Below are positions 9,607-64,000 of a stretch of DNA of 64,000 nucleotides, one piece after another. The stretch is from Heterodontus francisci (Eukaryota): assembly GCF_036365525.1 (NCBI RefSeq), contig NC_090414.1:18933846-18997845 (forward strand), given 5' to 3'. Position 1 is the first letter of the stretch, and the number at the start of each line of letters is the position of its first letter. A model generated the notes under the pieces. The model saw only the letters and a list, made by a program, of their open reading frames with translations. It did no database searches and was not told where the DNA came from. A program made the position numbers and the translations under genes.

Positions 9607-10149
9607 CTGATGAGGTGGTTATATGGAAGAAGAAAGACACATAAGAACACAAAGCTAAATATATGGGGGAGTCCAGACCAAGGTCCTGTTAATATCAAAT
9701 AAACACTAATAAATCCAACAGGGAATTCAGGTGAAACTTTTTTGCATAGAGGGTGGGGAGAATGTGGAACTCGCTACCACAGGGAGTGGTTGAGGTGAAT
9801 AGTATCGTTGCATTTAAGGGGAAGAGGGATAAACAGATGAAGAAGGAATATAAGGATCAGGTGAGATAAGGTACGGTATGAGGAGTCCCGTGTAGACCAG
9901 CAATTGCCAAAAGGTGGTTTCGTTGAGTTTTTTTGATTATGAATGATTTTGATACAGATATTAGAGGGAAATTATTGTCTCCAGTTGGTGAGTCATTGAA
10001 GTGTAGGTATCGATTTAAAATTGTCACAGTGAGGAGCTAGGGGAAATTCCTTTACACAGAGGGTTGTTGGAACCTGGGATGCTTTATCACAGGAGGTGGC
10101 ACCTTTTGAAGGAAATGTGGATAAATCAATGAAACAGAGGATGAACCAG

Positions 10150-25150: not shown

Positions 25151-25159
25151 TACACCAGC

Positions 25160-25890: not shown

Positions 25891-27914
25891 TCCCTTTTGC
25901 CTGTATTTTTACATACCCATTTTTGTTTTTCCCTCCCCTTCCTCCTCCACTTTCTCCCTCCCTCTGTCCTGTTTTATAAACTGTTAAATCTCTAACTTCA
26001 TTCAGTTCTGATGAAAGGTCACCAACCTGAAATGTTTCTCTCTCTCCACAGATGCTGCCTGTCCTTCTGAGTGTTTACCTGCACGTTTTGTTTTTATTTC
26101 AGACTTCCAGCATCTGCGGTGTGCCTCCGATTCGGCTAGCAAGACCCGGGACTGTTAACGATACAACTCCCTTGTGAAGTGGGCTAGATTCCCATGCAAG
26201 AAATTGCAAGGATATGGGGAAAGAGCTGGAGAGGGGGGGGGGGGGGGGGGGTGGGGGCGGGGAGGGGGTGGGGGCGGGGAGGAGTGGGACTAACTAGATT
26301 GCTCTTCAAAAGAGCTGGCACAGGCTCGATGGGCCGAATGGCCTCTTCTGTGCCGTACTATTCTGTGATTCTAAGCACTCTCACTCCTTTGTCTCACTAA
26401 AGGCAGAGTGAGTTAACATGAGACATAGTGTTGTTGACATGGTTCACAAGCTGCTTTATTCCAGGGTAACTCAGATTCAGGACACCAAGTGTGATGAAAT
26501 ACACTTGTCTTTTTTCATGCATTCATAAGGTGCGGGCAGTGCATTTATTGCCCATCCCTAATTGCCCTTGGTGATGAGCTGCCTTCTTGTTTACAACTAA
26601 GTGGTCATTTCAGAGGGTAGTTAAGAGTCAACCACATTGCTGTGGGCCTAGAGTCACATGTAGGCCAGACCAAGTAAGGAGGGCAGATTTCCTTCCCTTA
26701 AAGGGCATGAGTGAACTCGACGGGTTTTTCCGACAATCCGGTAGTTTCATGGTCACCGTTACTGATAACCAGTTTTTAATTCCAGATTTATTTAATGAAT
26801 TGAATTTAAATATCGCAGCTGCCGAGGTGTCATTTGAACTAATTTCTCTGGATCATTAGCCTGAGCCTCTGGGCTACTAGTCTAGTAACATAATGACTAT
26901 GCCACGGTACAATCAGAAGTTCCTTTCCTCGTAGCGTTCCAAAAATAACAATGGACACACACATGCTCGCTTACTTTGGTGGACTTCACTCTGCCGGTAG
27001 TGAGAAGAGTCTCACAGCAGCTTTTGCCCATTTTTACAGTTTTCTCCTGTCCCCTGCCCTTTTTTTTTTGCAGCATCACTGACTTCTGGTGCATGACTGG
27101 AGTTTTAAAAATGCCCCCTCTCTCTAAAGACCAGTAGAGATCAACATTGACAATACTCAGGTGCGAGGTATTTTCTGAGTGACCCAGACCCTGCTGACAA
27201 ATGGGTCAATGTTTAAGACTGATGGGTGCAAGCTTGAGACTGACCTAACTTCTAAGACCATTAGTATTGTACCCTGGCTATAAAAGTGAGAGACCATTCA
27301 CTATTTAAGTCTGATAACGGAAAATATTCTCCTGGAGAAGACGGAGGAAAATGGCTTAATTGCTCAAATCCCTCTATAGCCTCGTTCCCCCCCAACCCCC
27401 CCCCCCTTCCCTATCTCTGTAACCTCTTCCAGCCCTACAACCCTCTGAGATCTCTGGGCTCCTCTAATTCTGGCCTCTTGGGCATCCCTGATTTTGATCG
27501 CTCCACCACTGACGGCCGTGCCTTCAGCTGCCTGGGGGCCCTAAGCTCTGGAATTCCCTCCCTAAACCTCTCCGCCTGTCTCTCCTCCTCTCAGACACTC
27601 CTTAAAACCGACCTCTTTGACCAAGCTTTTGGGCATTTGTTCAAATATCTCAAATGGCTTGATCACGAATTCTGTTCGATTACACGAGCATCCGAAGCAC
27701 CTTGGAATGTTTGTTATGTTATATAAATACAGGTGGTTCTTGTTCCAAAGTTGATTTTGAACACTTATGAGACATCAGAACATGAGGAGCATCTCTGATT
27801 GGTCACAGAAAGAAGTGTAGGAATGCTGGAGTGAGTGTTTGGCCTTAACTCCTTCCCTCAAACAACGCTTGTAACTTCACACAGCAATTCTATTGTTTGA
27901 ATACAGTACAAAAA

Positions 27915-28045
27915 TGGGGGAATTGCGGGAGGGTACCAGTAAATGGGGGAACATGGGGCAGAGCACCAGTAAAGGGGATAAATCGGGGAGGAAGGCACCA
28001 GTAAATGGGGGAATTGAGAGAGGGCACCAGTAAATTGAGGGAGGA
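27915..28045 (+). repeat. Minisatellite GGAGGGCACCAGTAAATGGGGGAATT, left part
   Basis: Several units of about 29-32 bp. Confidence 0.75.
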
Positions 28046-29704: not shown

Positions 29705-30095
29705 AGGGTACCAGTAAATGGGGGAATTGGGGAGGGCACCAGTAAGTGGGGAAATTGTGGGAGGGCACCAGTAAATGGGGAAATTGTGGGAGGGCACCAG
29801 TAAATGGGGAAATTGAGGGAGGGCACCAGTAAGTGGGTTATTGGAGGAGGGCACCAGTAAATGGGGAAATTGAGGGAGGGCACCAGTAAGTGGGGAGCAT
29901 GAGGGAGGGCACCAATAAATGGGGGAATTGAGGGAGGGAACTAGTAAATGGGGGAATTGAGGAGGGCACCAGTAAGTGGGGAGCTTGAGGGAGGGAACTA
30001 GTAAATGGGGGAATTGAGGGAGGGAACTAGTGAATGGGGGAATTGAGGGAGGGCATTAGTAAAGGGGAGCTTGAGGGAGGGAACCAGTAAATGTG
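29705..30095 (+). repeat. Minisatellite GGAGGGCACCAGTAAATGGGGGAATT, right part
   Basis: About 13 units of 28-30 bp. Confidence 0.88.
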
Positions 30096-39005: not shown

Positions 39006-39070
39006 TGACAGCAGCCTTGGAGGAACAGAAGGAAGCAGTAAGATGACTAATGGGTGTGGTTCAGTCTTAC

Positions 39071-39628
39071 CTCGATCTGGGGGAATTTCCGTTTCTTCTT
39101 CTTCTCCTTGGCGATGGTAACGCCAGGGATATTAACATCCCGGGTGGCGAGGGAGGCAGTCGTGCGGGTGGCCTGTGCCCGCAACTCTGCGCACTTCTCC
39201 TTGGAGGTCAAAGGTTTCACTGGCGAGATGCTCAACAGGGCCTCACTAGCCAAGAGTCTCTCAAAGCCAAAGAAGGACCTGCGCGCTGGCACTGGTTGGT
39301 TTGGTGTGGACGTGTCAGAGGCATCACTCGACGAGCACGGTGATTCCCCGTAGCTGCACCCGGCTGTGCTCGGGCTCCTGTTCAAGGCATGGATTCCAAA
39401 GGGGCTCAGGCGGCTGTACGAACGCCGTACCTTCTGGGACATTGCTGTGCTTCTGTCCACCGGTAGGGTGGGCACCGTGTCCGGGGAGTCGCCAGTCTCC
39501 TTCGGAGAAGGGGTCACGGTGGTAGATGTCGAGGGAAAGGTGGAGCCCCAACCCGCCTCAGCACCGAGCACGCTCCCTACCTGAACCGAGCCTTCGCAAA
39601 TATTTTCTTTCATGGTCTTGGGGGAAAT
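39071..39628 (-). CDS. CDCA5: Sororin exon 5 (KEN box, MSQKVRRSYSRL, FGF motif, basic patch)
   Basis: ISPKTMKEN, MSQKVRRSYSRL, SFFGFERL, IPGV..KEKKKKRK; ttacag acceptor and GAG|gtaaga donor. Confidence 0.95.
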
Positions 39629-41021
39629 CTGTAAAACAGAAAAGAGTTTCACATCAACTGAATTACATCCTATAGTATTCAAGTGGCTTTCACTTGCACA
39701 ACAATCGTGTAAAACTCTTGATATTTAGGAACAGGAGGTGGGGGCCATTCAGCCCCTCCAGACTGTTCCACCATTCAGTTAGATTTTGCCCAATCCTCAC
39801 CTCAGCCCAACTTTGTCCCATATCACTCAATAGCCGTACCCAACAAAAATGTATCAATCTCAGTCTCGACAGCTCCAGCCGTTTCCATAGCATCCACCGC
39901 CTTTTTGCAGGGGCCGGCAGTGGGGGGGGGGGGGGTGCGGTGCTTGGGGCCAGGGGGAGGTGAATAAGTTAATTCTGATTTCACTCCTGAACAGCCTGGC
40001 TCGAATTTTTAAGGTTTTGCCCCCTAGTTCGAGATTGCCCCACACCAGAGGAAGTAGTTTCTCTGTGCCGACCGTACCAAATCCCTTTATCATTTTAAAG
40101 ACCTCAATTGTATCACTCTTCAATTGATTAGGTCTGATACAGACAAAATTAATTCCTGCATTGCTATTAATTTTAATTATATACACAGGTCATATATTTT
40201 ACATACCAGTTAGCCTATTAAGGGAGAACTGCACAACATACGCTACAAATATTAATTTGCATCACCTGAATCTAGCTCCTTGCAAACATGAATTGGACAA
40301 TCTGCTGCGCAGTGATTTGCTCCTGTTTAAATACTGGCTTTCTTGACTGAATCTGAAATCCTAAGGCAGCAACTCACAGCACACACTCCGTGTTGAAATC
40401 ATGGCACAAGTCAACAGTCTCAGTTATATCCACTGTCTAACGGCACTTGACAAAGTACAAGCCAGTAGACCATAGGATAACACAGCACAGAAGGCAGCCA
40501 TTCGGCCCATCGAGTCTGTGCTGGCTCTTTCAAAGAGCAATCCAGTTAGTCCCACACCCCCGCAAATTTTTTTCTCCTTCAGATATTTATCCAATTCCCT
40601 TTTGCAGGCTACTATTGAATCTGTCTCCACTGCCCTATCAGACAGCACATTCCAAATCCTAACCACTCATGTTAAAAAATATTTATGTCGCCTCTGGTTC
40701 TTCCATCAATCACCTTAAATCTGTGCCCTTTGATTATTGACACTTCAAACCTCCACATTTTCCCTTCAACCTCTCTGACAGATCTCAAGCAGCGGGCGAA
40801 ATGGACGACCTGCTCCCGATGCCAGTCAGTTGCGATGAGAAAAACTCATGCCTCATAATAATCCCTCATAAGAATCAACTCCAAATGTTGGTTTTATTTG
40901 AATAACGTTCTGAATACTTTGCTAAAGCACTCTCCGGGCTGGCTAGTCAGCCTGGTTGTCAAGCAATCTTTAGGTCAGTCTCAGAGGATCTCCTCAGAAG
41001 TGAGTCAGTATGTATACTTAC

Positions 41022-43951: not shown

Positions 43952-44489
43952 CTAAAGAAAAAGAAGAGTTAAAGTAATGATTCTAGCCTCTTGTTGCCTA
44001 AGGAAACAGAATATGCCTCCAGATGACTGGTGTTGTGGGTCAGGTATATTTATACAGGATGGTCCCATTGGCTATAATGGGTTTTCCACACAGCTTATGC
44101 ATTCTGCTCATCCACTTTTACACCACACTTCAGCTCAGTTCCTGATCTAAACGTCATCACTCAATTGTCAGAGAGTCAGTGCTCACTCGAATTGTAAAAA
44201 AGCCAAGCTGCACAGCTGCAAATTTGCACTTCCAAGATTAGGGGGACAGGTCTGTCACTGTATAACACTGGGGAACCCCCTCTCCCACACGCCCCCACCA
44301 TTCAACCCCCCCACCCCCCCGCCTGCATCCTCTTCACACTCCCACCCTCCTCCCCTCCCCTCCCCCCCATCTCCCTCTCCTACTTCACCCCCCAACTTCT
44401 CCTCCTCCCTCTCCATCCCCAACCTCCCCCCACTCCTTCACCACCAACCTCCACCCCCTCCAGGCAGTGGCCAGGGGGGGGAGGGGCAG

Positions 44490-46470
44490 GGGAGCGAGTG
44501 TACCAATATTTACAGGCGGGGGTAGGGGAGCGAGTGTACGAGTGTACCAATGTTCACAGGGGGAGGGGAGCGAGTGTACCAATGTTAACAGGCAAGGGAG
44601 GGGAGCAAGTGTACCAATGTTTGCAGGGGAGGGGAGGGAGTTTACCAATGTTTGCAGGGGAGGGGAGCGAGGGTACCAATGTTCACAGGGGAGGGGAGCG
44701 AGTGTACCAATGTTCACAGGCAGGGGAGGGGAGCGAATGTACCAATGTTTGCAGGGGAGGGAGTTTACCAATGTTAACAAGCGGAGGGGAGCGAGTGTAC
44801 CAACATTTACAGGCAGTGGGGAGGCAGTGTACTCATGTTTACAGGTGGGGAGGTGGGGGTGGGAAGGAAGGGGAGGGAGTGTACCAATGTTTACAGGCAG
44901 GTGTGGGGAGGGAGTGTACCAATGTTTACAGGCGGTGGCGGAGGGGAGGGAGTGTACCAATGTTAACAAGCGGAGGGGAGCGAGTGTACCAACATTTACA
45001 GGCAGTGGGGAGGCAGTGTACTCATGTTTACAGGTGGGGAGGTGGGGGTGGGAAGGAAGGGGAGGGAGTGTACCAATGTTTACAGGCAGGTGTGGGGAGG
45101 GAGTGTACCAATGTTTACAGGCGGCGGCGGAGGGGAGGGAGTGTACCAATGTTAACAAGCGGAGGGGAGCGAGTGTACCAACATTTACAGGCAGTGGGGA
45201 GGCAGTGTACTCATGTTTACAGGTGGGGAGGTGGGGGTGGGAAGGAAGGAAGGGGAGGGAGTGTACCAATGTTTACAGGCGGTGGCAGAGGGGAGGGAGT
45301 GTACCAATGTTTACAGGTTGGGGGGGGAAGGGAGGGAGTGTACCAACATTTACAGGTGGAGAAGGGGTGGGAGGGAGTGTAATGTTTACAGGTGGCAGGG
45401 GGAGGAGAAGGGGAGGGAGTGTACCAATCTATGCAGGGGGGCGAGGGGAGGGAGTGTACCAATGTTTGTGGGGGGGGCGAGGGGAGGGAGTGAGGGAGTG
45501 TACCAATGTTTGCGGGGGGGGGAAGGGGAGGGAGTGAGGGAGTGTACCAATGTTTGCGGGGGGTGAGGGGAGGGAGTGTACCAATGTTTGCGGGAGGGGG
45601 TGCGAGGGGAGGGTGTGTACCAATGTTTGCGGGGGAGGGAGTGTACGAATGTTTGCGGGGGAGGGAGGAGAGGGAGTGTACCAATGTTTGCGGGGGGTGA
45701 GGGGAGGGAGTGTACCAATGTTTGTGGGAGGGAGGTGCGAGGGGAGGGAGTGTACCAATGTTTGCGGGGGGTGAGGGGAGGGAGTGTACCAATGTTTGCG
45801 GGGGGTGAGGGGAGGGAGTGTACCAATGTTTGCGGGGGGTGAGGGGAGGGAGTGTACCAATGTTTGCGGGGGGTGAGGGGAGGGAGTGTACCAATGTTTG
45901 CGGGGGGTGAGGGGAGGGAGTGTACCAATGTTTGCGGGGGGTGAGGGGAGGGAGTGTACCAATGTTTGCGGGAGGGGGTGCGAGGGGAGGGTGTGTACTA
46001 TTGTTTGCGGGGGGTGAGGGGAGGGAGTGTACGAATGTTTGCGGGGGGGGTGCGAGGGGAGGGAGTGTACCAATGTTTGCGGGAGGGTGCGAGGGGAGGG
46101 AGTGTACCAATGTTTGCGGGAGGGTGCGAGGGGAGGGAGTGTACCAATGTTTGCGGGGGGGGGGTGCGAGGGGAGGGAGTGTACCAATGTTTGCGGGAGG
46201 GAGTGTACCAATGTTTGCGGGGGGTGAGTGTACCAATGTTTGCGGGAGGGTGCGAGGGGAGGGAGTGTACCAATGTTTGCGGGGGGGGGGGGTGCGAGGG
46301 GAGGGAGTGTACCAATGTTTGCGGGGGGGGGGTGCGAGGGGAGGGAGTGTACCAATGTTTACGGGCGGGGGGAGAGGAGGGAGTGTACCAATGTTTACGG
46401 GCGGGGGGAGGGGAGGGAGTGTACCAACGTTCGCGGGGGGAGGGGAGCGAGTGTACCAATGTTTACAGGG
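44490..46470 (+). repeat. G-rich minisatellite with GAGTGTACCAATGTTT core (units of roughly 25-45 bp) in CDCA5 intron 1
   Basis: Repeated core motif; 189-bp higher-order triplication (atgttaacaag at 44771, 44960, 45149). Confidence 0.93.
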
Positions 46471-46587
46471 GGTGCAGTGCATGGAGATTGACAGTGGGGC
46501 GGGGGAGATACACAAGCAGCGGGATTGAGCTCGGATGGTCGCAAGTGGATGCAGAGTCCCAGTGGAATGCACTCCCTCCTCACTCAC

Positions 46588-46639
46588 CTTGAGCCCGGGT
46601 CGGGCCCTGACTCCCTCCGCCCGCCTCCTGCTCCTCCAT
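46588..46639 (-). CDS. CDCA5: Sororin exon 1 (MEEQEAGGGSQGPTRAQ)
   Basis: ATG just downstream of the CHR/CCAAT promoter; phase-1 donor AAG|gtgagt. Confidence 0.75.
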
Positions 46640-46679
46640 CTCTCCGCCAGCTGCCGATGGCCACCACCGCGCGCGTACC

Positions 46680-47080
46680 AACAGCAACCGCCTTCAAAAA
46701 AAAATCCGCCGCCACGGCCTCGGATTGGACAAGTGCGAGCGCCTCAATCCTGATTGGATCCCCTTCACCTATGCCCGCCGCCTCGGATTGGACAAGTGCG
46801 AGCGCTTCAATCCTCATTGGCCCTCCCTTCACCCAGGCGCGCCGGCTCTGGTTGGCCGTTTATAAACCAACGGTGGCCGATTGGCTCGTGCTCCACGTTT
46901 CCGCCCCTCACGCTTCCGATTAGCCGTACCTGGAACAGCCCTCGATGCCGATTGGATGGAAGGGCATCAGAATTCCGATTGGGTCAGGGTCAGCGCTCGA
47001 TGTTGATTGGTCAAACCGCTTGTTAATGACGCATTCCGGTTGGTTGGTTGGGAGGCATTGCCCTGCCCATTGGCTGGCGT
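46680..47080 (-). promoter_or_regulatory. CDCA5 promoter: CHR element plus about 9 CCAAT (NF-Y) boxes in a CpG-rich region
   Basis: TTTGAA on the minus strand at 46693-46698; ATTGG on plus at about 46724, 46753, 46787, 46816, 46880, 46951, 46978, 47006, 47069. Confidence 0.8.
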
Positions 47081-47199
47081 GCTGGCCCGACCCCGCACCA
47101 CCCCCCCACCCAACCACGTTATTTAAAGGGCCAGGCGCCCCTTCTTTCCCGCTTTAGACTCAGATAGGGTAAGGGGTAGAGTATGATGGAGAATACCTG

Positions 47200-47877
47200 A
47201 TCTTTCCTGCACGCCCGAAGTCTCGCCCCTTCCGCACAGTGCCCCTGCGGTGGCTGTGGTGGGGAAGAGACGGTTGCCCACCTGCTTCTGGAATGTGTCT
47301 TTGCAAAGCAGGTGTGGAAAGAGATGCAGTGGTTTTTGTCGAGGTTCATCCCAAGCAGCTCTGTAACACAGGAGTCTGTTACCAGGGACGCACACCAAGA
47401 TAAACATCAACTGCTGCTGGAGGACTATCAATTCGGTGAAAGACGCCCTTTGGTCTGCCCGAAACTTGCTGGTTTTCCAGCGCAAAGAGTTGTCCACGAC
47501 CGAATGTTGCAGACTGGCACATTCCAAGGTCCAGGACTACGTGCTGAGGGACGCACTAAAGCTCGGGGCAGCCGCAGCAAAGGCTCAATGGGGAAAGACC
47601 ACAGTGTAAGGTCCCCCCACCAAGCTGAACCGAGGGGCTGGATCTATGGGAAACCCCTCGAACTGTATTGGGAAAAATTTCATTTGCTGTAAAATGTAAA
47701 AATGGAATTGGCATGACAAATGTGAAATGGAAGGGTTGTGAGACAACTCATGATTGTAATGAAGCAAACGGACCTCCTTTGCACTGTTTGTATTTTTTGA
47801 CTTGGTGCTGTTTGAAACTGGTAATGTAATTTTTACAGATTTTTATGAATAAAGAATATTTTGGAATTTAAAAAAAA
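47200..47877 (+). mobile_element. 5'-truncated L1/Tx1-type LINE 3' end
   Basis: Zinc-knuckle-type ETVAHLLLECVFAKQVW coding sequence, AATAAA plus A-tail, 17-bp TSD atgatg(g/a)agaatacctg at 47183 and 47878. Confidence 0.82.
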
Positions 47878-47899
47878 ATGATGAAGAATACCTGCCTTG

Positions 47900-48390
47900 T
47901 ATCTGGTGTTGGTCTTTTCACCTAAGAAAGAATATATATGCCTGGACGGGTGGAATGCAACTGACCTATGAGTAGAGATTGAGTAGTCTGGGCCAGCTTC
48001 CCTGGAGTTTAGTCAAATGAGAGGTGATCTCATCTAAAAGAATTAGAGAGGTTGAGGGGCTGTTTTCCCCAGTTGGAGAGTCTGAACTAGATGGTTATAG
48101 TCTTAGGATAAGGGGTCGGCCATTTAGGGCTGAGGTGAGAAATGCCTTCACTCAGAGGGTTGTGAATGTTTGGAATTCCCTACCTCAGAGGGCTGCGGAT
48201 GCTCAGTCATTGAGCATATTCAAGATGGAGAGCAATAGATTTTTTGGGGGGGGGGGGCCTTAAGGAAATCAAGGGATTGGATGGGAAAGTGGAGTTGAAG
48301 TCAAAGATCTGCCATGATCTTAATGAATGGCGGAGCAGGCTTGAGGGAACCCCCATAACCTACTCCTACTCCTGTGTCTTGCGTTCAGGT
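47900..48390 (+). mobile_element. Degraded CR1 3' fragment
   Basis: AFTQRVVNVWNSLPQRA in ORF 48024..48263. Confidence 0.75.
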
Positions 48391-49994
48391 GGATGTTAAA
48401 GATCCCACAGTGCTGCAAGAAGCAACATAGGAATTTCTCCAGGTGTCCTAGCTAACACTTTTCTCTCAGCAAACACCAGGAAACACAGAATCAGAGGGCG
48501 CTTGTCCTCACTGCTGATTGTGGGATCTTGCTGTACTCGGATTGGGCAACTGCATTTGCCTGCACAATAAGTGACAGCACTTCAAAAGTGATAGATCACT
48601 TGTGAAGTGGTCTGGGTTATCAAGGATGTGAACCAGCTGCTTTATGAATTCCAATTCTTTCCTTCCTGCCATCAGTAAATCAAATATGAGGAATCATATG
48701 CCCTATCCCTGTAGAGTGGGGAAAAAGGGAGCAATACAATCTGAAATCGCGATATATTAATGCTTCCAGTTTCATCAAAACCAAGGTATGCTGCAGTGTC
48801 CTACATTTTCTGCCCGTACATCTCTCTCTTGTATGTCCCTCATTCATATTTCTCCTTTCTTCTCTGTTTCTGTCTCTCTGTCTGCTTTCTTTTTAATTTT
48901 TCTCTGCCTCTTTTCCTCTCGCTGTCAAAAAGCCTTGACCTCAAACAGTATTTCTCTACAGCTGTCCATCTGAATGCAGGTGATCCTGAAATCTCTGCTA
49001 TAGATCAAGGAACTTGCTTTGGCCTGATTTAACGTTCAGCATTTTCTCTCAGTTTACAACTCCTTTACTACAGTGCAATGTGGTCGAAATGATGATGATT
49101 ATCAGAGAGTGTTACACCCTGATGAAATACAAATATGAAACTTTGATTCCTCTTTGCAGATGCAGAGAGAGTAGCTTGTTTGGACTCATGATGACCAGAG
49201 TTGATAACAGGTCATTGACCTGAAACATTAACTGTCCGTTTTCCTCTCTCTCCACATATGATGTTTGAACTGATGGAGTGTTTCCTGTATTTTCTGGTTT
49301 TATTCCAGATTTTATTCCTAAAATTATATGCATGATGTGGGCGACTCTGGCAAAACCAGCATTTATTGCCCAACTCTAGTTGCCCTGAGATGGTCATGGG
49401 GCTTCTCCTTGAACTACTGAAGTCCGTACAGTGAAGGTGCTCCGATAGTGCTATTAGGTCACGGGTTCAAGGTCATTGCTCAGCAATGATGAAGGAACAG
49501 CCATTTATATTTATAAGGCACCTGTAATGTCATAAAATATCCCAAGGTGTGTAATAAAGTGAAACTTGACACAGAGCCACATAAGGAGCAATTAGGACAG
49601 GTGACCAAAAGTTTGATTAAAGAGCAAGGTTTTAAGGAGCTTCTTGAAGGAGGAAAGCCAGATGGCGGTGTAAGGAGGGTAGTCCAGAGCTTGGGGCCTA
49701 GGCAACTGAAGGCACGGCTGCCAATGGTGGAGCGATTAAAATTGGGGATGCCCAGAATTGGAGCAGCGCAGAGATCTCGGAGGGATGCCGGGCTGGAGGA
49801 AGTTACAGTGAGGCCATGGATGGGTTTTCAAAGCAAGGATGAGAATATTAATAAAGGAATGAACAACCCTGACATTGCTGCCATTGTCCACCTGAATGGG
49901 AGAGAAGGTTTTATTGGTTTGGAGTGTCACAGTGAGGATTTGCTGCAGCCTGGGTTGAGGGGAGGAGAGTAGGAACCATTGTTTGGGGCTCCTT

Positions 49995-50144
49995 GTTCTG
50001 CCGGAAGCACGGAGGCGGACGGGCCGGTGACGTCATCAATCCGCGCCGGGACCCGGAAGAGACGTGGCAACGGCCGAGTGATCGGAAGAGGCGGCGGAGG
50101 CAGAGTGGGTGAGGCCTTGGAGCTCCAGTCTTCGGCCGGCGGCC
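49995..50144 (+). promoter_or_regulatory. ZFPL1 CpG-rich promoter with ETS (CCGGAAG) and CRE (TGACGTCA) motifs
   Basis: ccggaag at 50001 and 50053, tgacgtca at 50028-50035, immediately upstream of the ATG. Confidence 0.7.
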
Positions 50145-50246
50145 ATGGGTCTGTGTAAATGCCCCAAGCGCCGGGTGACCACCCTCTTTTGCTATGAACA
50201 CCGAGTCAATGTGTGTGAGCACTGCCTCATCTCCCGGCACTACAAG
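50145..50246 (+). CDS. ZFPL1: Zinc finger protein-like 1, first coding exon ([34 protein letters not shown])
   Basis: Kozak gccATGg, diagnostic ZFPL1 N-terminal zinc domain, donor AAG|gtagga; divergent from CDCA5 as in human. Confidence 0.95.
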
Positions 50247-53200
50247 GTAGGAGAGCCCGGGGCCTGTGGCAGGCTCGACAGGGCAGTACACTGGGAATAT
50301 ACTATAAATAATCAATGCACTGAGAGACTGGGTTATATACACTGTATAAATAATCAATACACAGAGAGACTGGGTTATATACACTGTATAAATAATCAAT
50401 ACACGGAGAGACTGGGTTATATACACTGTATAAATAATCAATACACAGAGAGACTGGGTTATATACACTGTATAAATAATCAATACACAGAGAGACTGGG
50501 TTATATACACTGTATAAATAATCAATACACTGAGAGACTGGGTTATATACACTGTATAAATAATCAATACACGGAGAGACTGGGTTATATACACTGTATA
50601 AATAATCAATACACAGAGAGACTGGGTTATATACACTGTATAAATAATCAATACACTGAGAGACTGGGTTATATACACTGTATAAATAATCAATACACAG
50701 AGAGACTGGGTTATATACACTGTATAAATAATCAATACACGGAGAGACTGGGTTATATACACTGTATAAATAATCAATACACGGAGAGACTGGGTTATAT
50801 ACACTGTATAAATAATCAATACACGGAGAGACTGGGTTATATACACTGTATAAATAATCAATACACAGAGAGACTGGGTTATATACACTGTATAAATAAT
50901 CAATACACAGAGAGACTGGGTTATATACACTGTATAAATAATCAATACACGGAGAGACTGGGTTATATACACTGTATAAATAATCAATACACGGAGAGAC
51001 TGGGTTATATACACTGTATAAATAATCAATACACGGAGAGACTGGGTTATATACACTGTATAAATAATCAATACACGGAGAGACTGGGTTATATACACTG
51101 TATAAATAATCAATACACGGAGAGACTGGGTTATATACACTGTATAAATAATCAATACACAGAGAGACTGGGTTATATACACTGTATAAATAATCAATAC
51201 ACAGAGAGACTGGGTTATATACACTGTATAAATAATCAATACACAGAGACTGGGTTATATACACTGTATAAATAATCAATACACAGAGAGACTGGGTTAT
51301 ATACACTGTATAAATAATCAATACACAGAGAGACTGGGTTATATACACTGTATAAATAATCAATACACTGAGAGACTGGGTTATATACACTGTATAAATA
51401 ATCAATACACTGAGAGACTGGGTTATATACACTGTATAAATAATCAATACACAGAGAGACTGGGTTATATACACTGTATAAATAATCAATACACAGAGAG
51501 ACTGGGTTATATACACTGTATAAATAATCAATACACTGAGACTGGGTTATATACACTGTATAAATAATCAATACACAGAGAGACTGGGTTATATACACTG
51601 TATAAATAATCAATACACAGAGAGACTGGGTTATATACACTATAAATAATCAATACACAGAGAGACTGGGTTATATACACTGAATAAATAATCAATACAC
51701 TGAGAGACTGGGTTATATACACTGTATAAATAATCAATACACTGAGAGACTGGGTTATTTACACTGTATAAATAATCAATACACTGAGAGACTGGGTTAT
51801 ATACACTGTATAAATAATCAATACACAGAGAGACTGGGTTATATACACTGTATAAATAATCAATACACAGAGACTGGGTTATATACAGTGTATAAATAAT
51901 CAATACACAGAGAGACTGGGTTATATACACTATAAATAATCAATACATAGAGAGACTGGGTTATATACACTGTATAAATAATCAATACACAGAGAGACTG
52001 GGTTATATACACTGTATAAATAATCAGTACACTGAGAGACTGGGTTAGAAACACTATAAAAAATCAGTGCACTGAGAGACTGGGTTATATACACTGTATA
52101 AATAATCAATACACTGAGAGACTGGGTTATATACACTGTATAAATAATCAATACACTGAGAGACTGGGTTATATACACTGTATAAATAATCAATACACAG
52201 AGAGACTGGGTTATATACACTGTATAAATAATCAATACACAGAGAGACTGGGTTATATACACTGTATAAATAATCAATACACAGAGAGACTGGGTTATAT
52301 ACACTGTATAAATAATCAATACACTGAGAGACTGGGTTATATACACTGTATAAATAATCAATACACTGAGACTGGGTTATATACACTGTATAAATAATCA
52401 ATACACAGAGAGACTGGGTTATATCCACTGTATAAATAATCAATACACAGAGAGACTGGGTGATATACACTGAATAAATAATCAATACACTGAGAGACTG
52501 GGTTATATACACTGTATAAATAATCAATACACTGAGAGACTGGGTTATATACACTGTATAAATAATCAATACACTGAGACTGGGTTATATACACTGTATC
52601 AATAATCAATACACTGAGAGACTGGGTTATATACACTGTATAAATAATTAATACACAGAGAGACTGGGTTATATACACTGTATAAATAATCAATACACAG
52701 AGACTGGGTTATATACACTGTATAAATAATCAATACACTGAGACTGGGTTATATTCACTGTATAAATAATCAATACACAGAGAGACTGGGTTATATACAC
52801 TGTATCAATAATCAATACACTGAGACTGGGTTATATACACTGTATAAATAATCAATACACTGAGAGACTGGGTTATATACACTGTATAAATAATCAATAC
52901 ACGGAGAGACTGGGTTATATACACTGTATAAATAATCAATACACTGAGAGACTGGGTTATATACACTGTATAAATAATCAATACACGGAGAGACTGGGTT
53001 ATATACACTGTATCAATAATCAATACACTGAGACTGGGTTATATACACTGTATAAATAATCAATACACTGAGAGACTGGGTTATATACACTGTATAAATA
53101 ATCAATACACAGAGACTGGGTTATATACACTGTATAAATAATCAATACACTGAGACTGGGTTATATTCACTGTATAAATAATCAATACACTGAGAGACTG

Positions 53201-54183
53201 GGTTATATACACTGTATAAATAATCAATACACGGAGAGACTGGGTTATATACACTGTATAAATAATCAATACACAGAGAGACTGGGTTATATACACTGTA
53301 TAAATAATCAATACACTGAGACTGGGTTATATACACTGTCTAAATAATCAATACACAGAGAGACTGGGTTATATACACTGTATAAATAATCAATACACTG
53401 AGAGACTGGGTTATATACACTGTATCAATAATCAATACACTGAGAGACTGGGTTATATACACTGTATCAATAATCAATACACTGAGAGACTGGGTTATAT
53501 ACACTGTATAAATAATCAATACACAGAGAGACTGGGTTATATACACTGTATAAATAATCAATACACTGAGACTGGGTTATATACACTGTATAAATAATCA
53601 ATACACAGAGAGACTGGGTTATATACACTGTATAAATAATCAATACACAGAGAGACTGGGTTATATACACTGTATAAATAATCAATACACAGAGAGACTG
53701 GGTTATATACACTGAATAAATAATCAATACACTGAGAGACTGGGTTATATACACTGTATAAATAATCAATACACTGAGAGACTGGGTTATATACACTGTA
53801 TAAATAATCAATACACAGAGAGACTGGGTTATATACACTGTATAAATAATCAATACACTGAGACTGGGTTATATACACTGTATAAATAATCAATACACAG
53901 AGAGACTGGGTTATATACACTGTATAAATAATCAATACACAGAGAGACTGGGTTATATACACTGTATAAATAATCAATACACAGAGAGACTGGGTTATAT
54001 ACACTGTATAAATAATCAATACACAGAGAGACTGGGTTATATACAGTGTATAAATAATCAATACACAGAGAGACTGGGTTATACACACTATAAATAATCA
54101 ATACACAGAGAGACTGGGTTATATACACTATAAATAATCAATACACAGAGAGACTGGGTTATATACACTGTATAAATAATCAA

Positions 54184-54323
54184 ATTTCTCTGCAGCACCT
54201 GTGGAAGAGCCTGTCACTCCAGAATTGGCCTTCATAGCCACTCCAGGCGCTGCTTCACAAACCACTGACCACCTCCAGGCGCGTATCCATTGTCTCTCGA
54301 GATAAGGAGGCCCAAAAGAAAGA
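54184..54323 (+). mobile_element. 140-bp RTE LINE 3' end inside the array, copy 1
   Basis: Reverse complement of about 24430-24569 with one substitution; flanked by ATAAATAATCAA duplication. Confidence 0.92.
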
Positions 54324-56513
54324 ATAAATAATCAATACACAGAGAGACTGGGTTATATACACTGTATAAATAATCAATACATAGAGAGACTGGGTTATAT
54401 ACACTGTATAAATAATCAATACACTGAGAGACTGGGTTATATACACTGTATAAATAATCAATACACAGAGAGACTGGGTTATATACACTGTATAAATAAT
54501 CATTACACTGAGAGACTGGGTTATATACACTGTATAAATAATCAATACACTGAGAGACTGGGTTATATACACTGAATAAATAATCAATACACTGAGAGAC
54601 TGAATTATATACACTGTATAAATCATCAATACACTGAGAGACTGGGTTATATACACTGTATAAATAATCAATACACAGAGAGACTGGGTTATATTCACTG
54701 TATAAATAATCAATACACAGAGAGACTGGGTTATATACACTGTATAAATAATCATTACACTGAGAGACTGGGTTATATACACTGTATAAATAATCAATAC
54801 ACTGAGAGACTGGGTTATATACACTGAATAAATAATCAATACACTGAGAGACTGGGTTATATTCACTGTATAAATAATCAATACACAGAGAGACTGGGTT
54901 ATATACACTGTATAAATAATCAATACACAGAGAGACTGGGTTATATACACTGAATAAATAATCAATACACTGAGAGACTGGGTTATATACACTGAATAAA
55001 TAATCAATACACTGAGAGACTGGGTTATATACACTGAATAAATAATCAATACACAGAGAGACTGGGTTATATACACTGAATAAATAATCAATACACAGAG
55101 AGACTGGGTTATATACACTGAATAAATAATCAATACACTGAGAGACTGGGTTATATACACTGTATAAATAATCAATACACAGAGAGACTGGGTTATATAC
55201 ACTGAATAAATAATCAATACACAGAGAGACTGGGTTATATACACTGAATCAATAATCAATACACAGAGAGACTGGGTTATATACACTGTATAAATAATCA
55301 ATACACTGAGAGACTGGGTTACATACACTGAATAAATAATCAATACACAGAGAGACTGGGTTATATGCACTGTATAAATAATCAATACACAGAGAGACTG
55401 GGTTATATACACTGTATAAATAATCAATACACAGAGAGACTGGGTTATATGCACTGTATAAATAATCATTACACTGAGAGACTGGGTTATATACACTGTA
55501 TAAATAATCAATACACAGAGAGACTGGGTTATATACACTGTATAAATAATCAATACACAGAGAGACTGGGTTATATACACTGTATAAATAATCAATACAC
55601 AGAGAGACTGGGTAATATACACTGTATAAATAATCAATACACTGAGAGACTGGGTTATATACACTGCATAAATAATCAATACACAGAGAGACTGGGTTAT
55701 ATACACTGTATAAATCATCAATACACGGAGAGACTGGGTTATATACACTGAATAAATAATCAATACGCTGAGAGACTGGGTTATATACACTATAAATAAT
55801 CAATACACAGAGAGACTGGGTTATATACACTGTATAAATAATCAATACACAGAGAGACTGGGTTATATACACTGTATAAATCATCAATACACGGAGAGAC
55901 TGGGTTATATACACTGAATAAATAATCAATACACGGAGAGACTGGGTTATATACACTGTATAAATCATCAATACACGGAGAGACTGGGTTATATACACTG
56001 TATAAATAATCAATACACGGAGAGACTGGGTTATATACACTGAATAAATAATCAATACACGGAGAGACTGGGTTATATACACTGTATAAATCATCAATAC
56101 ACGGAGAGACTGGGTTATATACACTGTATAAATAATCAATACACGGAGAGACTGGGTTATATACACTGTATAAATAATCAATACACTGAGAGACTGGGTT
56201 ATATACACTGTATAAATCATCAATACACGGAGAGACTGGGTTATATACACTGTATAAATAATCAATACACGGAGAGACTGGGTTATATACACTGTATAAA
56301 TAATCAATACACTGAGACTGGGTTATATACACTGTATAAATAATCAATACACAGAGAGACTGGGTTATATACACTGAATAAATAATCAATACACTGAGAG
56401 ACTGGGTTATATACACTTCATAAATAATCAATACACTGAGACTGGGTTATATACACTGTATAAATAATCAATACACAGAGAGACTGGGTTATATACACTG
56501 TATAAATAATCAA

Positions 56514-56653
56514 ATTTCTCTGCAGCACCTGTGGAAGAGCCTGTCACTCCAGAATTGGCCTTCATAGCCACTCCAGGCGCTGCTTCACAAACCACTGACC
56601 ACCTCCAGGCGCGTATCCATTGTCTCTCGAGATAAGGAGGCCCAAAAGAAAGA
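56514..56653 (+). mobile_element. RTE 3'-end insert, copy 2
   Basis: Same sequence and junctions as copy 1. Confidence 0.92.
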
Positions 56654-57867
56654 ATAAATAATCAATACACAGAGAGACTGGGTTATATACACTGAATAAA
56701 TAATCAATACACAGAGAGACTGGGTTATATACACTGTATAAATAATCAATACACTGAGACTGGGTTATATACACTGTATAAATAATCAATACACAGAGAG
56801 ACTGGGTTATATACACTGTATAAATAATCAATACACTGAGAGACTGGGTTATATACACTGCATAAATAATCAATACACTGAGACTGGGTTATATACACTG
56901 AATAAATAATCAATACACAGAGAGACTGGGTTATATACACTATAAATCATCAATACACGGAGAGACTGGGTTATATACACTGAATAAATAATCAATACAC
57001 TGAGAGACTGGGTTATATACACTATAAATAATCAATACACAGAGAGACTGGGTTATATACACTGTATAAATAATCAATACACAGAGAGACTGGGTTATAT
57101 ACACTGTATAAATCATCAATACACGGAGAGACTGGGTTATATACACTGAATAAATAATCAATACACTGAGAGACTGGGTTATATACACTATAAATAATCA
57201 ATACACAGAGAGACTGGGTTATATACACTGTATAAATCATCAATACACGGAGAGACTGGGTTATATACACTGAATAAATAATCAATACACTGAGAGACTG
57301 GGTTATATACACTATAAATAATCAATACACAGAGAGACTGGGTTATATACACTGTATAAATAATCAATACACAGAGAGACTGGGTTATATACACTGTATA
57401 AATAATCAATACACAGAGAGACTGGGTTATATACACTGTATAAATAATCAATACACAGAGAGACTGGGTTATCTACACTGTATAAATAATCAATACACTG
57501 AGAGACTGGGTTATATACACTGTATAAATAATCAATACACTGAGAGACTGGGTTATATACACTGCATAAATAATCAATACACTGAGACTGGGTTATATAC
57601 ACTGTATAAATAATCAATACACGGAGAGACTGGGTTATATACACTGTATAAATAATCAATACACGGAGAGCCTGGGTTATATACACTGTATAAATAATCA
57701 ATACACTGAGAGACTGGGTTATATACACTGCATAAATAATCAATACACTGAGACTGGGTTATATACACTGTATAAATAATCAATACACAGAGAGACTGGG
57801 TTATATACACTGAATAAATAATCAATACACAGAGAGACTGGGTTATATACACTGTATAAATAATCAA

Positions 57868-58007
57868 ATTTCTCTGCAGCACCTGTGGAAGAGCCTGTCA
57901 CTCCAGAATTGGCCTTCATAGCCACTCCAGGCGCTGCTTCACAAACCACTGACCACCTCCAGGCGCGTATCCATTGTCTCTCGAGATAAGGAGGCCCAAA
58001 AGAAAGA
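57868..58007 (+). mobile_element. RTE 3'-end insert, copy 3
   Basis: Same sequence and junctions as copy 1. Confidence 0.92.
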
Positions 58008-58601
58008 ATAAATAATCAATACACAGAGAGACTGGGTTATATACACTGTATAAATAATCAATACACAGAGAGACTGGGTTATATACACTGTATAAATAAT
58101 CAATACACAGAGAGACTGGGTTATATACACTGTATAAATAATCAATACACAGAGAGACTGGGTTATATACACTGTATAAATAATCAATACACTGAGAGAC
58201 TGGGTTATATACACTGCATAAATAATCAATACACTGAGACTGGGTTATATACACTGTATAAATAATCAATACACGGAGAGACTGGGTTATATACACTGTA
58301 TAAATAATCAATACACGGAGAGACTGGGTTATATACACTGTATAAATAATCAATACACTGAGACTGGGTTATATACACTGTATAAATAATCAATACACAG
58401 AGAGACTGGGTTATATACACTGAATAAATAATCAATACACTGAGAGACTGGGTTATATACACTGCATAAATAATCAATACACTGAGACTGGGTTATATGC
58501 ACTGTATAAATAATCAATACACAGAGAGACTGGGTTATATACACTGAATAAATAATCAATACACAGAGAGACTGGGTTATATACACTGTATAAATAATCA
58601 A

Positions 58602-58741
58602 ATTTCTCTGCAGCACCTGTGGAAGAGCCTGTCACTCCAGAATTGGCCTTCATAGCCACTCCAGGCGCTGCTTCACAAACCACTGACCACCTCCAGGCGC
58701 GTATCCATTGTCTCTCGAGATAAGGAGGCCCAAAAGAAAGA
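58602..58741 (+). mobile_element. RTE 3'-end insert, copy 4
   Basis: Same sequence and junctions as copy 1. Confidence 0.92.
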
Positions 58742-61437
58742 ATAAATAATCAATACACAGAGAGACTGGGTTATATACACTGTATAAATAATCAATACAT
58801 AGAGAGACTGGGTTATATACACTGAATAAATAATCAATACACTGAGAGACTGGGTTATATACACTGTATAAATAATCAATACACAGAGAGACTGGGTTAT
58901 ATACACTGTATAAATAATCATTACACTGAGAGACTGGGTTATATACACTGTATAAATAATCAATACACTGAGAGACTGGGTTATATACACTGAATAAATA
59001 ATCAATACACTGAGAGACTGGGTTATATACACTGAATAAATAATCAATACACAGAGAGACTGGGTTATACACACTGAATAAATAATCAATACACAGAGAG
59101 ACTGGGTTATATACACTGAATAAATAATCAATACACTGAGAGACTGGGTTATATACACTGAATAAATAATCAATACACTGAGAGACTGGGTTATATACAC
59201 TGAATAAATAATCAATACACTGAGAGACTGGGTTATATAAACTGAATAAATAATCAATACACTGAGAGACTGGGTTATATACACTGAATAAATAATCAAT
59301 ACACTGAGAGACTGGGTTATATACACTGATTAAATAATCAATACACAGAGAGACTGGGTTATATACACTGAATAAATAATCAATACACAGAGAGACTGGG
59401 TTATATACACTGAATAAATAATCAATACACTGAGAGACTGGGTTATATACACTGTATAAATAATCAATACACAGAGAGACTGGGTTATATACACTGAATA
59501 AATAATCAATACACAGAGAGACTGGGTTATATACACTGAATAAATAATCAATACACAGAGAGACTGGGTTATATACACTGTATAAATAATCAATACACTG
59601 AGAGACTGGGTTACATACACTGAATAAATAATCAATACACAGAGAGACTGGGTTATATGCACTGTATAAATAATCAATACACAGAGAGACTGGGTTATAT
59701 ACACTGTATAAATAATCAATACACAGAGAGACTGGGTTATATGCACTGTATAAATAATCATTACACTGAGAGACAGGGTTATATACACTGTATAAATAAT
59801 CAATACACAGAGAGACTGGGTTATATACACTGTATAAATAATCAATACACAGAGAGACTGGGTTATATACACTGCATAAATAATCAATACACAGAGAGAC
59901 TGGGTTATATACACTGAATAAATAATCAATACACGGAGAGACTGGGTTATATACACTGAATAAATAATCAATACACGGAGAGACTGGGTTATATACACTG
60001 TATAAATAATCAATACACAGAGAGACTGGGTTATATACACTGTATAAATAATCAATACACAGAGACTGGGTTATATACACTGTATAAATAATCAATACAC
60101 GGAGAGACTGGGTTATATACACTGAAAAAATAATCAATACACGGAGAGACTGGGTTATATACACTGAATAAATAATCAATACACTGAGAGACTGGGTTAT
60201 ATACACTGAATAAATAATCAATACACAGAGAGACTGGGTTATATACACTGTATAAATAATCATTACACTGAGAGACTGGGTTATATACACTGTATAAATA
60301 ATCATTACACTGAGAGACTGGGTTATATACACTGTATAAATAATCAATACACTGAGAGACTGGGTTCTATACACTGTATAAATAATCAATACACTGAGAG
60401 ACTGGGTTCTATACACTGTATAAATAATCAATACACTGAGAGACTGGGTTATATACACTGTATAAATAATCAATACACAGAGAGACTGGGTTATATACAC
60501 TGTATAAATAATCATTACACTGAGAGACTGGGTTGTATACACTGTATAAATAATCATTACACAGAGAGACTGGGTTATATACACTGTATAAATAATCAAT
60601 ACACAGAGAGACTGGGTTATATACACTGTATAAATAATCAATACACTGAGAGACTGGGTTATATACACTGTATAAATAATCATTACACTGAGAGACTGGG
60701 TTATATACACTGTATAAATAATCAATACACTGAGAGACTGGGTTATATACACTGTATAAATAATCAATACACAGAGAGACTGGGTTATATACACTGTATA
60801 AATAATCAATACACAGAGAGACTGGGTTATATACACTGTATAAATAATCAATACACTGAGAGACTGGGTTATATACACTGTATAAATAATCAATACACTG
60901 AGAGACTGGGTTATATACACTGAATAAATAATCAATACACAGAGAGACTGGGTTATATACACTGAATAAATAATCAATACACAGAGAGACTGGGTTATAT
61001 ACACTGAATAAATAATCAATACACAGAGAGACTGGGTTATATACACTGAATAAATAATCAATACACAGAGAGACTGGGTTATATACACTGAATAAATAAT
61101 CAATACACAGAGAGACTGGGTTATATACACTGAATAAATAATCAATACACAGAGAGACTGGGTTATATACACTGAATAAATAATCAATACACAGAGAGAC
61201 TGGGTTATATACACTGAATAAATAATCAATACACAGAGAGACTGGGTTATATACACTGAATAAATAATCAATACACAGAGAGACTGGGTTATATACACTG
61301 AATAAATAATCAATACACTGAGAGACTGGGATATATACACTGCATAAATAATCAATACACTGAGACTGGGTTATATACACTGAATAAATAATCAATACAC
61401 AGAGAGACTGGGTTATATACACTGTATAAATAATCAA

Positions 61438-61577
61438 ATTTCTCTGCAGCACCTGTGGAAGAGCCTGTCACTCCAGAATTGGCCTTCATAGCCACTCCAG
61501 GCGCTGCTTCACAAACCACTGACCACCTCCAGGCGCGTATCCATTGTCTCTCGAGATAAGGAGGCCCAAAAGAAAGA
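61438..61577 (+). mobile_element. RTE 3'-end insert, copy 5
   Basis: Same sequence and junctions as copy 1. Confidence 0.92.
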
Positions 61578-63255
61578 ATAAATAATCAATACACAGAGAG
61601 ACTGGGTTATATACACTGTATAAATAATCAATACATAGAGAGACTGGGTTATATACACTGTATAAATAATCAATACACAGAGAGACTGGGTTATATACAC
61701 TGTATAAATAATCATTACACTGAGAGACTGGGTTATATACACTGTATAAATAATCAATACACTGAGAGACTGGGTTATATACACTGAATAAATAATCAAT
61801 ACACTGAGAGACTGGGTTATATACACTGTATAAATAATCAATACACAGAGAGACTGGGTTATATACACTATAAATAATCAATACACAGAGAGACTGGGTT
61901 ATATACACTGAATAAATAATCAATACACTGAGAGACTGGGTTATATACACTGAATAAATAATCAATACACTGAGAGACTGGGTTATATACACTGAATAAA
62001 TAATCAATACACAGAGAGACTGGGTTATATACACTGAATAAATAATCAATACACAGAGAGACTGGGTTATATACACTGAATAAATAATCAATACACTGAG
62101 AGACTGGGTTATATACACTGTATAAATAATCAATACACAGAGAGACTGGGTTATATACACTGAATAAATAATCAATACACAGAGAGACTGGGTTATATAC
62201 ACTGAATAAATAATCAATACACAGAGAGACTGGGTTATATACACTGTATAAATAATCAATACACTGAGAGACTGGGTTATATACACTGCATAAATAATCA
62301 ATACACTGAGACTGGGTTATATACACTGAATAAATAATCAATACACAGAGAGACTGGGTTATATACACTGTATAAATCATCAATACACGGAGAGACTGGG
62401 TTATATACACTGAATAAATAATCAATACACTGAGAGACTGGGTTATATACACTATAAATAATCAATACACAGAGAGACTGGGTTATATACACTGTATAAA
62501 TAATCAATACACAGAGAGACTGGGTTATATACACTGTATAAATCATCAATACACGGAGAGACTGGGTTATATACACTGAATAAATAATCAATACACTGAG
62601 AGACTGGGTTATATACACTATAAATAATCAATACACAGAGAGACTGGGTTATATACACTGTATAAATCATCAATACACGGAGAGACTGGGTTATATACAC
62701 TGAATAAATAATCAATACACTGAGAGACTGGGTTATATACACTATAAATAATCAATACACAGAGAGACTGGGTTATATACACTGTATAAATAATCAATAC
62801 ACAGAGAGACTGGGTTATATACACTGTATAAATAATCAATACACAGAGAGACTGGGTTATATACACTGTATAAATAATCAATACACTGAGAGACTGGGTT
62901 ATATACACTGTATAAATAATCAATACACTGAGAGACTGGGTTATATACACTGCATAAATAATCAATACACTGAGACTGGGTTATATACACTGTATAAATA
63001 ATCAATACACGGAGAGACTGGGTTATATACACTGTATAAATAATCAATACACGGAGAGACTGGGTTATATACACTGTATAAATAATCAATACACTGAGAG
63101 ACTGGGTTATATACACTGCATAAATAATCAATACACTGAGACTGGGTTATATACACTGTATAAATAATCAATACACAGAGAGACTGGGTTATATACACTG
63201 AATAAATAATCAATACACAGAGAGACTGGGTTATATACACTGTATAAATAATCAA

Positions 63256-63395
63256 ATTTCTCTGCAGCACCTGTGGAAGAGCCTGTCACTCCAGAATTGG
63301 CCTTCATAGCCACTCCAGGCGCTGCTTCACAAACCACTGACCACCTCCAGGCGCGTATCCATTGTCTCTCGAGATAAGGAGGCCCAAAAGAAAGA
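63256..63395 (+). mobile_element. RTE 3'-end insert, copy 6 (a 7th copy begins at 63990)
   Basis: Same sequence and junctions as copy 1. Confidence 0.92.
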
Positions 63396-64000
63396 ATAAA
63401 TAATCAATACACAGAGAGACTGGGTTATATACACTGTATAAATAATCAATACACAGAGAGACTGGGTTATATACACTGTATAAATAATCAATACACAGAG
63501 AGACTGGGTTATATACACTGTATAAATAATCAATACACAGAGAGACTGGGTTATATACACTGTATAAATAATCAATACACTGAGAGACTGGGTTATATAC
63601 ACTGCATAAATAATCAATACACTGAGACTGGGTTATATACACTGTATAAATAATCAATACACGGAGAGACTGGGTTATATACACTGTATAAATAATCAAT
63701 ACACGGAGAGACTGGGTTATATACACTGTATAAATAATCAATACACTGAGACTGGGTTATATACACTGTATAAATAATCAATACACAGAGAGACTGGGTT
63801 ATATACACTGAATAAATAATCAATACACTGAGAGACTGGGTTATATACACTGCATAAATAATCAATACACTGAGACTGGGTTATATGCACTGTATAAATA
63901 ATCAATACACAGAGAGACTGGGTTATATACACTGAATAAATAATCAATACACAGAGAGACTGGGTTATATACACTGTATAAATAATCAAATTTCTCTGCA

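Follow-up and report, generated by a model that had tools for sequence, protein, structure and literature searches.

We analyzed a 64,000-nucleotide window of the Heterodontus francisci genome (assembly GCF_036365525.1, contig NC_090414.1, positions 18,933,846 to 18,997,845 of the forward strand), in which a 42-bp minisatellite array behind the first coding exon of ZFPL1 is interrupted at seven places by the same 140-bp sequence, the 3' end of a long interspersed nuclear element (LINE). We conclude, with a probability of about 0.88, that this LINE tail was inserted once and was then copied through recombination of the array with no onward retrotransposition, the copies probably being neutral intronic DNA that is spliced out. 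A first-pass annotation of this DNA had proposed a single target-primed insertion followed by array turnover, and the proposal was supported, on firmer grounds than it had given, mainly by the duplicated strings of monomer variants that flank the inserts. The positions of the features in the window are listed in Table 1.

Table 1. Positions of the array, the inserts and related features in the 64-kb window.
Feature	Position	Strand	Details
42-bp minisatellite array	50303-64000	+	Tandem Repeats Finder (TRF) and unit parse; at least 13.7 kb, open at window end
Insert-free 5' domain	50303-54171	+	92 units; variant spectrum distinct
Copy 1 of insert	54184-54323	+	left duplication 54172-54183, right duplication 54324-54335; sequence match
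Copy 2 of insert	56514-56653	+	
Copy 3 of insert	57868-58007	+	
Copy 4 of insert	58602-58741	+	
Copy 5 of insert	61438-61577	+	
Copy 6 of insert	63256-63395	+	
Copy 7 of insert	63990-64000	+	first 11 bases; window edge cuts the rest
1.8-kb block (copy 3, start of copy 4)	56802-58612	+	near-identical to 62230-64000
Second 1.8-kb block (copy 6, start of copy 7)	62230-64000	+	most recent duplication, or assembly/haplotype duplicate
ZFPL1 first coding exon	50145-50246	+	34 codons, B-box-like; GT donor at 50247
Sibling LINE copy, 5'-truncated	24430-25147	-	220 open codons, stop, 3' untranslated region (UTR), tail

Structure of the inserts and their junctions

The array was parsed into 305 units, of which 299 consisted of satellite only (254 of 42 bp and 45 of 40 bp) and six carried an insert. 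Each insert-bearing unit was 194 bp long, corresponding to 42 bp of monomer, 140 bp of insert and a further 12 bp. A scan of the window for the monomer motif revealed no match before 50324 among the first 200 of the 306 matches in coordinate order.

As shown in Table 1, the inserts started at seven positions, all in one register. The six complete copies were identical over 140 bp and shared the same 5' end and tail length, and the same 12-bp string was found at all seven left junctions and all six right junctions. The coordinates, the shared register and the duplication around the complete copies were therefore as first annotated, with copy 7 represented by a stub of 11 bp, and the alignment of inserts and junctions bore this out. 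Copy 1 comprised the last 85 nt of the LINE open reading frame (ORF), including the stop codon at 54266-54268, followed by 55 nt of 3' UTR and tail. Comparison with the sibling LINE copy elsewhere in the window (24569-24430, minus strand) gave 139 identical bases out of 140 (E 1e-68, within-window blastn), and the sole difference was C in the insert for T in the sibling at insert position 50. This agreed with the earlier description of the insert as the 3' end of that LINE carrying a C-for-T variant. Additionally, six of the AATAAA hexamers of the array sat at the tail junctions.

These features are those of a 5'-truncated insertion of a retrotransposon without long terminal repeats (LTRs): the 3' end and tail were intact, the 5' end lay inside the ORF, and each of the six complete copies had a 12-bp target-site duplication whose first base was A and was preceded by T. 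Excerpts of earlier work describe duplications of 7-15 bp, mostly 10-12 bp and often with A as the first base, for animal RTE LINEs (PMC6007223), and targets nicked between T and A with a run of T about 10 nt upstream (PMC13295347); the length of 12 bp, the first A and the preceding T fit these descriptions. At the 5' junction, the LINE and the monomer had 3 bp of perfect homology (7 of 9 bp when imperfect), which would account for the truncation point. The exact junctions are uncertain by a few bases, since the LINE also agrees with the final 3 bases of the left duplicated string (with 7 of its final 9), and the A at the start of that string could derive from the tail.

In the course of events that we propose, target-primed reverse transcription would have placed an RTE-type shark LINE, a single time, in one monomer of the intronic 42-bp minisatellite. 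Only 140 nt would have been kept, with the 5' end joined where LINE and monomer share a short homology, and the target would have been left with about 12 bp duplicated. The anatomy of this event is read directly from the bases, and from it we infer the enzymology.

Duplicated flanks around the inserts

The array was rewritten as a string of monomer types, and its repeats and alignments were tested against shuffled strings. The longest exact repeat of the string was 18 units in length and spanned an insert, compared with at most 6 units in 200 shuffles; as DNA, this repeat was 941 bp of exact identity at 57672 and 63060 and reached the window end. Among the pairs of segments lying between inserts, 11 of 15 scored above all 100 shuffles, with best scores of 82.7 versus 22.7 and 55.4 versus 20.4. 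In particular, a monomer variant present in three copies was confined to the monomer directly behind inserts 1, 4 and 5 (p 4.5e-6 uncorrected, or about 5e-5 when allowing for the 11 rare types from which it was picked), and three variants with two copies each followed inserts 1 and 4 in the same order, at offsets of 4292, 4292 and 4208. The large indels between related blocks, of 42, 84 and 294 bp, were whole monomers. Site, ends and duplication were the same in all copies and the flanks were co-duplicated, as is characteristic of amplification within an array. The segment behind copy 5 started like those after copies 1 and 4 and ended like that after copy 2; it looks like a recombinant joined at a shared monomer type, in which out-of-register exchange would have lost or gained an insert-bearing stretch.

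Once in place, the insert would have acted as an oversized variant monomer, and out-of-register exchange between monomers would have duplicated and rearranged blocks of kilobase size, with the insert and its duplication as passengers. The shared variant strings and the monomer-multiple indels are observed in the array, and the recombination pathway is what we infer from them: unequal crossover between sister chromatids or homologues, conversion and template switching would all fit the one sequence at hand. The outcome would be at least seven insert copies in an irregular mosaic, most likely neutral, removed by splicing and not retrotransposed further. At the singleton rate of the flanks, 1.5 changes were expected in the 840 bp of inserts, and the probability of none was 0.23; the identity of the six inserts therefore requires no selection.

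The inserts were spaced by 51, 28, 13, 63, 39 and 13 monomers, or 2330, 1354, 734, 2836, 1818 and 734 bp from start to start. A loose rhythm of long, medium and short spacings was apparent, at offsets of 4.3-5.4 kb, in which only one segment was repeated exactly, and the visible array contained no fixed higher-order repeat, that is, no constant period and monomer order in tandem. The earlier suggestion that the fragment is becoming part of a composite higher-order unit holds only loosely: the inserts were indeed co-duplicated with their flanks, but they had no fixed period and made up 8.7% of the region 54184-64000. The insert-bearing region is a mosaic of recent block duplications with no fixed higher-order unit.

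The 92 units of the insert-free domain had no detectable relationship to the insert-bearing segments, as none of six comparisons beat the shuffles (10-79 of 100 shuffles scored as high). Three classes of monomer variants were absent from these 92 units and had 11-13 occurrences each after the first insert, and a variant bearing AATAAA accounted for 3 of the 92, as against 66 of the 207 units behind the first insert. The differing variant spectra suggest that the distal insert-bearing domain (54336-64000) expanded separately from the insert-free domain. We also considered whether the AATAAA-bearing variant had been born from the tail junction and found no support for this origin, since the variant was already present upstream of the first insert.

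Repeated insertion would have to use one junction each time, either through the same nick site and 5' homology in every monomer or through a 140-bp non-autonomous element that prefers the repeat and has a fixed 5' end. All monomers do carry the homology found at the 5' junction (3 bp perfect, 7 of 9 imperfect), and the C variant common to the inserts could be the state of the source lineage. However, independent insertions leave the shared flanking variant strings unexplained. The six host monomers were all of one type, which accounts for 24% of the units (chance 8e-4 given the first), and the first 92 units were free of inserts, while the sibling copy lies in an unrelated target and is 580 bp longer at its 5' side. 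The position of the insert 5' end, inside the ORF, also speaks against repeated insertion. We consider such repeated insertion scarcely credible.

The C variant had itself been put forward as a sign of single origin. It was common to the six complete copies, but its weight as proof is low and we rejected it in that role: it encodes His, and of the 120 relatives read, 111 had a motif that could be located, 22 of them with the same residue at that position. Both H. francisci proteins that cover the position have Tyr, like the copy at 24430. The variant may be the state of the source lineage and hence is weak evidence of a single origin.

An assembly or haplotype artefact, in which a shorter array or two mis-joined alleles would have inflated the number of inserts, was weighed against the same alignments. 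The segments after copies 1 and 4 differed by 13 substitutions and by monomer-sized indels, and the inserts had five different contexts upstream and five downstream, which is more than two haplotypes with one insert each could supply; an artefact therefore cannot produce all copies. The observations that would fit it are the two 1.8-kb blocks, which differed by 1 substitution, one 2-bp indel and one 42-bp indel, the 941-bp exact repeat that these blocks contain and that runs to the window end, and the 25 singleton monomer types in 12,468 bp, which could include read errors. As an account of the array, we regard the artefact as very improbable; that copies 6 and 7 alone are an artefactual duplicate of copies 3 and 4 is a narrower case, which we judge to be unlikely.

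Several points nevertheless weigh against a single insertion followed by copying. The analysis covers one assembly window and one sequence, and the near-identical 1.8-kb block is possibly an artefact, in which case the copies would be fewer. Three of the 15 segment pairs showed no similarity above the shuffles and one was marginal (1 of 100), and the alignments were scored by a scheme of our own. The one target site was T-rich, with T at -8, -10, -12 and -13 upstream of the nick and no TTT, so the reported T stretch is only partly present. The sibling copy at 24430 had no clear target duplication that could serve as a signature of the family itself.

The source LINE family

The sibling copy sits in a target unrelated to the array and reaches 580 bp further in the 5' direction than the inserts. 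We tried it as the donor of the inserts and rejected it, as it is itself 5'-truncated and lacks most of the ORF; no full-length copy of the family was found in the window. Its ORF had 1791 protein matches at E 0.001, many of them with PF00078, and among the matches listed its protein was 87-88% identical in amino acids to three H. francisci proteins and 58-67% identical to 117 others. In a search for look-alike proteins (Atlas), the first match scored 0.98 and was named 'Endonuclease-reverse transcriptase family', with a recognition value just under the threshold of the tool, whereas a PDB sequence search with the same ORF revealed no match at E 1. The family looks young, judging from the 220 open codons and the identity of 139 in 140 bases.

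We provisionally take the family to belong to RTE on the basis of motif resemblance, its homology to endonuclease-reverse-transcriptase ORFs and the form of its 3' end and target duplication; the label 'RTE' appeared on none of the listed protein or Atlas matches. The 3' UTR was short, at 55 nt including an A-rich, microsatellite-like tail, as expected of the RTE clade. The C-terminal codons had been read as a zinc knuckle. The spacing of a zinc knuckle is C-x2-C-x4-H-x4-C, and the motif in the translation was instead C-x2-C-x12-H-x3-C, which is spacing of the C2H2 type; its look-alikes in the Atlas search carry zf-C2H2, and the zinc-knuckle label was consequently abandoned.

Other traces of retrotransposons were observed near or related to this family. 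The sibling fragment directly follows the 3' end of another fragment that encodes reverse transcriptase (24430-25872, minus strand; ORF 25357-25872), presumably CR1-like. A related LINE has left an older and diverged piece of its 3' coding end at 6601-6670 on the plus strand (E 1e-5, 78% over 49 bp). At 31986 (minus strand), a match of 11 bases was dismissed as chance, as blastn did not extend it.

The host gene

The exon preceding the array was 100% identical to H. francisci ZFPL1 over 34 amino acids and 97% identical to three other shark ZFPL1 proteins, and it stopped at the residue where the ZFPL1 homolog runs on into the next exon. The Atlas search with this exon returned B-box leads only, all below 0.8. 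Given the identity of the exon and its GT donor, the array and the inserts lie downstream in sense orientation within the following intron, which confirmed their earlier placement in the ZFPL1 pre-mRNA. The array starts 56 bp into this intron. Its intronic position rests on the donor and on the continuation of the homolog; the next ZFPL1 exon lies beyond the window, and the far end of the intron is outside the 64 kb.

The reading frame of the ZFPL1 exon stays open beyond the donor and continues through the array as far as 51275 (open frame 50082-51275, plus strand). The 42-bp unit corresponds to 14 codons and is open in one frame on each strand (50082-51275, plus; 49911-51254, minus), and these open frames could mislead gene annotation or, were the intron retained, encode a repeat peptide. 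In sense orientation, the array (50303-64000) has 217 copies of the hexamer TATAAA and 74 of AATAAA; cryptic initiation or intronic polyadenylation of ZFPL1 at such sites is possible.

Potential for mobilization in trans

The first-pass annotation had gone on to suggest that satellite-plus-tail transcripts might be mobilized in trans, like a nascent short interspersed nuclear element (SINE). As an addition to a single insertion and copying, this would mean that the LINE acts in trans on ZFPL1 intron RNA containing satellite and tail, reverse-transcribing it and so giving rise to composites at other loci. The insert retains the whole 3' UTR and tail, which stringent LINEs are thought to recognize, and some RTE partners have only about 100 bases of the 3' end in common, according to excerpts of PMC3747384. 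The insert is also in sense orientation in the intron, and the LINE family looks young on the grounds given above. The same logic, however, makes every sense-oriented LINE tail in an intron a candidate.

The remaining observations went against mobilization. A LINE-derived 3' tail was present, but a promoter head for RNA polymerase III (pol III) was not: neither A-box nor B-box patterns matched on either strand of 50303-64000, and Rfam gave no match in 46000-58800. The insert also has no part derived from a 5' UTR, whereas many animal RTE-dependent SINEs have a promoter head, a 5'-UTR-derived part and a tail, as excerpts of PMC5786205 and PMC4844689 describe. The tails are internal, and the 74 AATAAA hexamers of the array begin at 51683 (2.5 kb upstream of copy 1); an RNA would therefore not be cleaved so as to end at a tail. 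AATAAA at the tail junctions would itself place cleavage downstream, in satellite. Folding of the tail was no better than that of shuffles (z 0.19 and -0.09). A hairpin was predicted in the insert and 3' UTR, but none of four sequences exceeded the shuffles (z -0.49 to 0.19), a result that does not favour recognition by the LINE and does not count strongly against it.

Dispersed copies of the monomer or the composite were absent from the first 50 kb of the window, the scope being the 64 kb analyzed. A protein-level proxy for the composite, namely the conceptual translation across monomer and insert, gave none among 52 candidates at E 0.01, which is weak evidence, as it returned no satellite-only protein either. 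Within the window, the trans-mobilization proposal thus found no support: there was no pol III box, no 5'-UTR part, no folding signal above shuffles and no means of forming an RNA 3' end at the tail. We consider it highly improbable. To the related view that the intronic minisatellite has turned into a substrate for the active LINE, with intron RNAs that end at or near a tail being reverse-transcribed in trans and carrying 42-bp monomers to new loci as a promoter-less, minisatellite-headed retroposon at its birth, we likewise give very little credence.

Other features of the window

A gene similar to Sororin/CDCA5 was observed at 39050-39724 and about 46582-46640 on the minus strand, divergent from ZFPL1 (Pfam Sororin_middle, E 1.6e-11), with a likely first exon carrying ATG and a GT donor near 46640-46580. 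A G-rich minisatellite of about 34 bp occupies 44337-46472, just inside the presumed first intron of this gene; together with the 42-bp array, it places a large minisatellite close behind the first exon of both divergent genes. The interval between the two promoters contains the 3' part of a LINE of another type, at 47201-47880 on the plus strand (E 5e-6 to Pfam zf-RVT). Other minisatellites were located at 10149-12355 (45 copies of 49 bp) and, with a 29-bp unit, at 27912-28035 and 29705-30093. Open frames of 674 and 393 codons without a Pfam match, at 21027-23051 and 8437-9618 on the minus strand, are probably large exons of genes.

Comparison with known systems and significance

Copies of mobile elements within satellite arrays have been described for Gypsy in Anoplius nigerrimus, for a LINE with 11 copies in Porphyrio hochstetteri and for retroviruses in Cervus elaphus (bioRxiv 10.64898/2026.09.17.752431). 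As in the present array, these are copies on the same strand with identical duplications or flanks, explained by one insertion and subsequent copying, and they include a vertebrate LINE. In contrast, those satellites are centromeric with units of 190-349 bp and the elements are described as intact, while here a 140-bp tail lies in a 42-bp intronic minisatellite.

In the Drosophila R1 array, McGurk and Barbash found insertions of fw, circe and accord2 with averages of 18, 6 and 6 copies (PMC5932611). There, too, insertions expanded with the array, unequal exchange was proposed and a higher-order organisation is possible, although the unit is itself a retrotransposon, the array spans 0.5-1.3 Mb and the order was inferred from short reads; here, the order is read directly. 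The Drosophila Rsp satellite contains clusters of G5 Jockey and Rsp-Doc5 duplications (Khost et al., PMC5411766), in which LINE copies are likewise duplicated with neighbouring satellite variants. That satellite is pericentromeric, with inversions and with transposable elements (TEs) at the array ends, whereas all copies here are direct repeats throughout the visible distal domain.

Like RTE-dependent SINEs and bipartite non-autonomous RTEs (Bov-tA, AfroSINE, ManaSINE), the insert carries an RTE LINE tail together with the 3' UTR (PMC5786205, PMC4844689). Those elements are units of transcription and retrotransposition with a head and often part of a 5' UTR, dispersed with new duplications; the insert had none of these, as far as tested. 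The short chromosomes of sharks are reported to be repeat-rich, with a high content of simple tandem repeats in gene-dense regions (PMC10620051). The window resembles such regions in carrying at least five tandem arrays (TRF), although the excerpted data of that study are genome-wide trends rather than an account of this repeat or of inserts within it. Composites of TEs and satellites are treated in general terms in a review (PMC12628747). We found no published description of this repeat or locus in main texts, most subscription journals being outside the search, and a 19-base stretch of the monomer was absent, in either orientation, from the literature searched. The process has already been described in other arrays, for LINEs as well as for LTR elements; the present case differs in its setting, with a short tail, a minisatellite and a gene intron.

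If dispersed monomer-plus-tail copies with new duplications did exist, they would represent a retroposon that arises without a pol III head, and tails mobilized in trans would be a possible route for the spread of intronic minisatellites in shark genomes; nothing here shows that. As copies within the array, the inserts extend to a gene intron a pattern that is known from centromeric and heterochromatic arrays. The insert also serves as a natural marker of how a large intronic minisatellite turns over: it stems from one event dated by order, its copies and the monomer variants reveal a history of duplication and deletion, and comparison of alleles would yield exchange rates and tract sizes in a shark.

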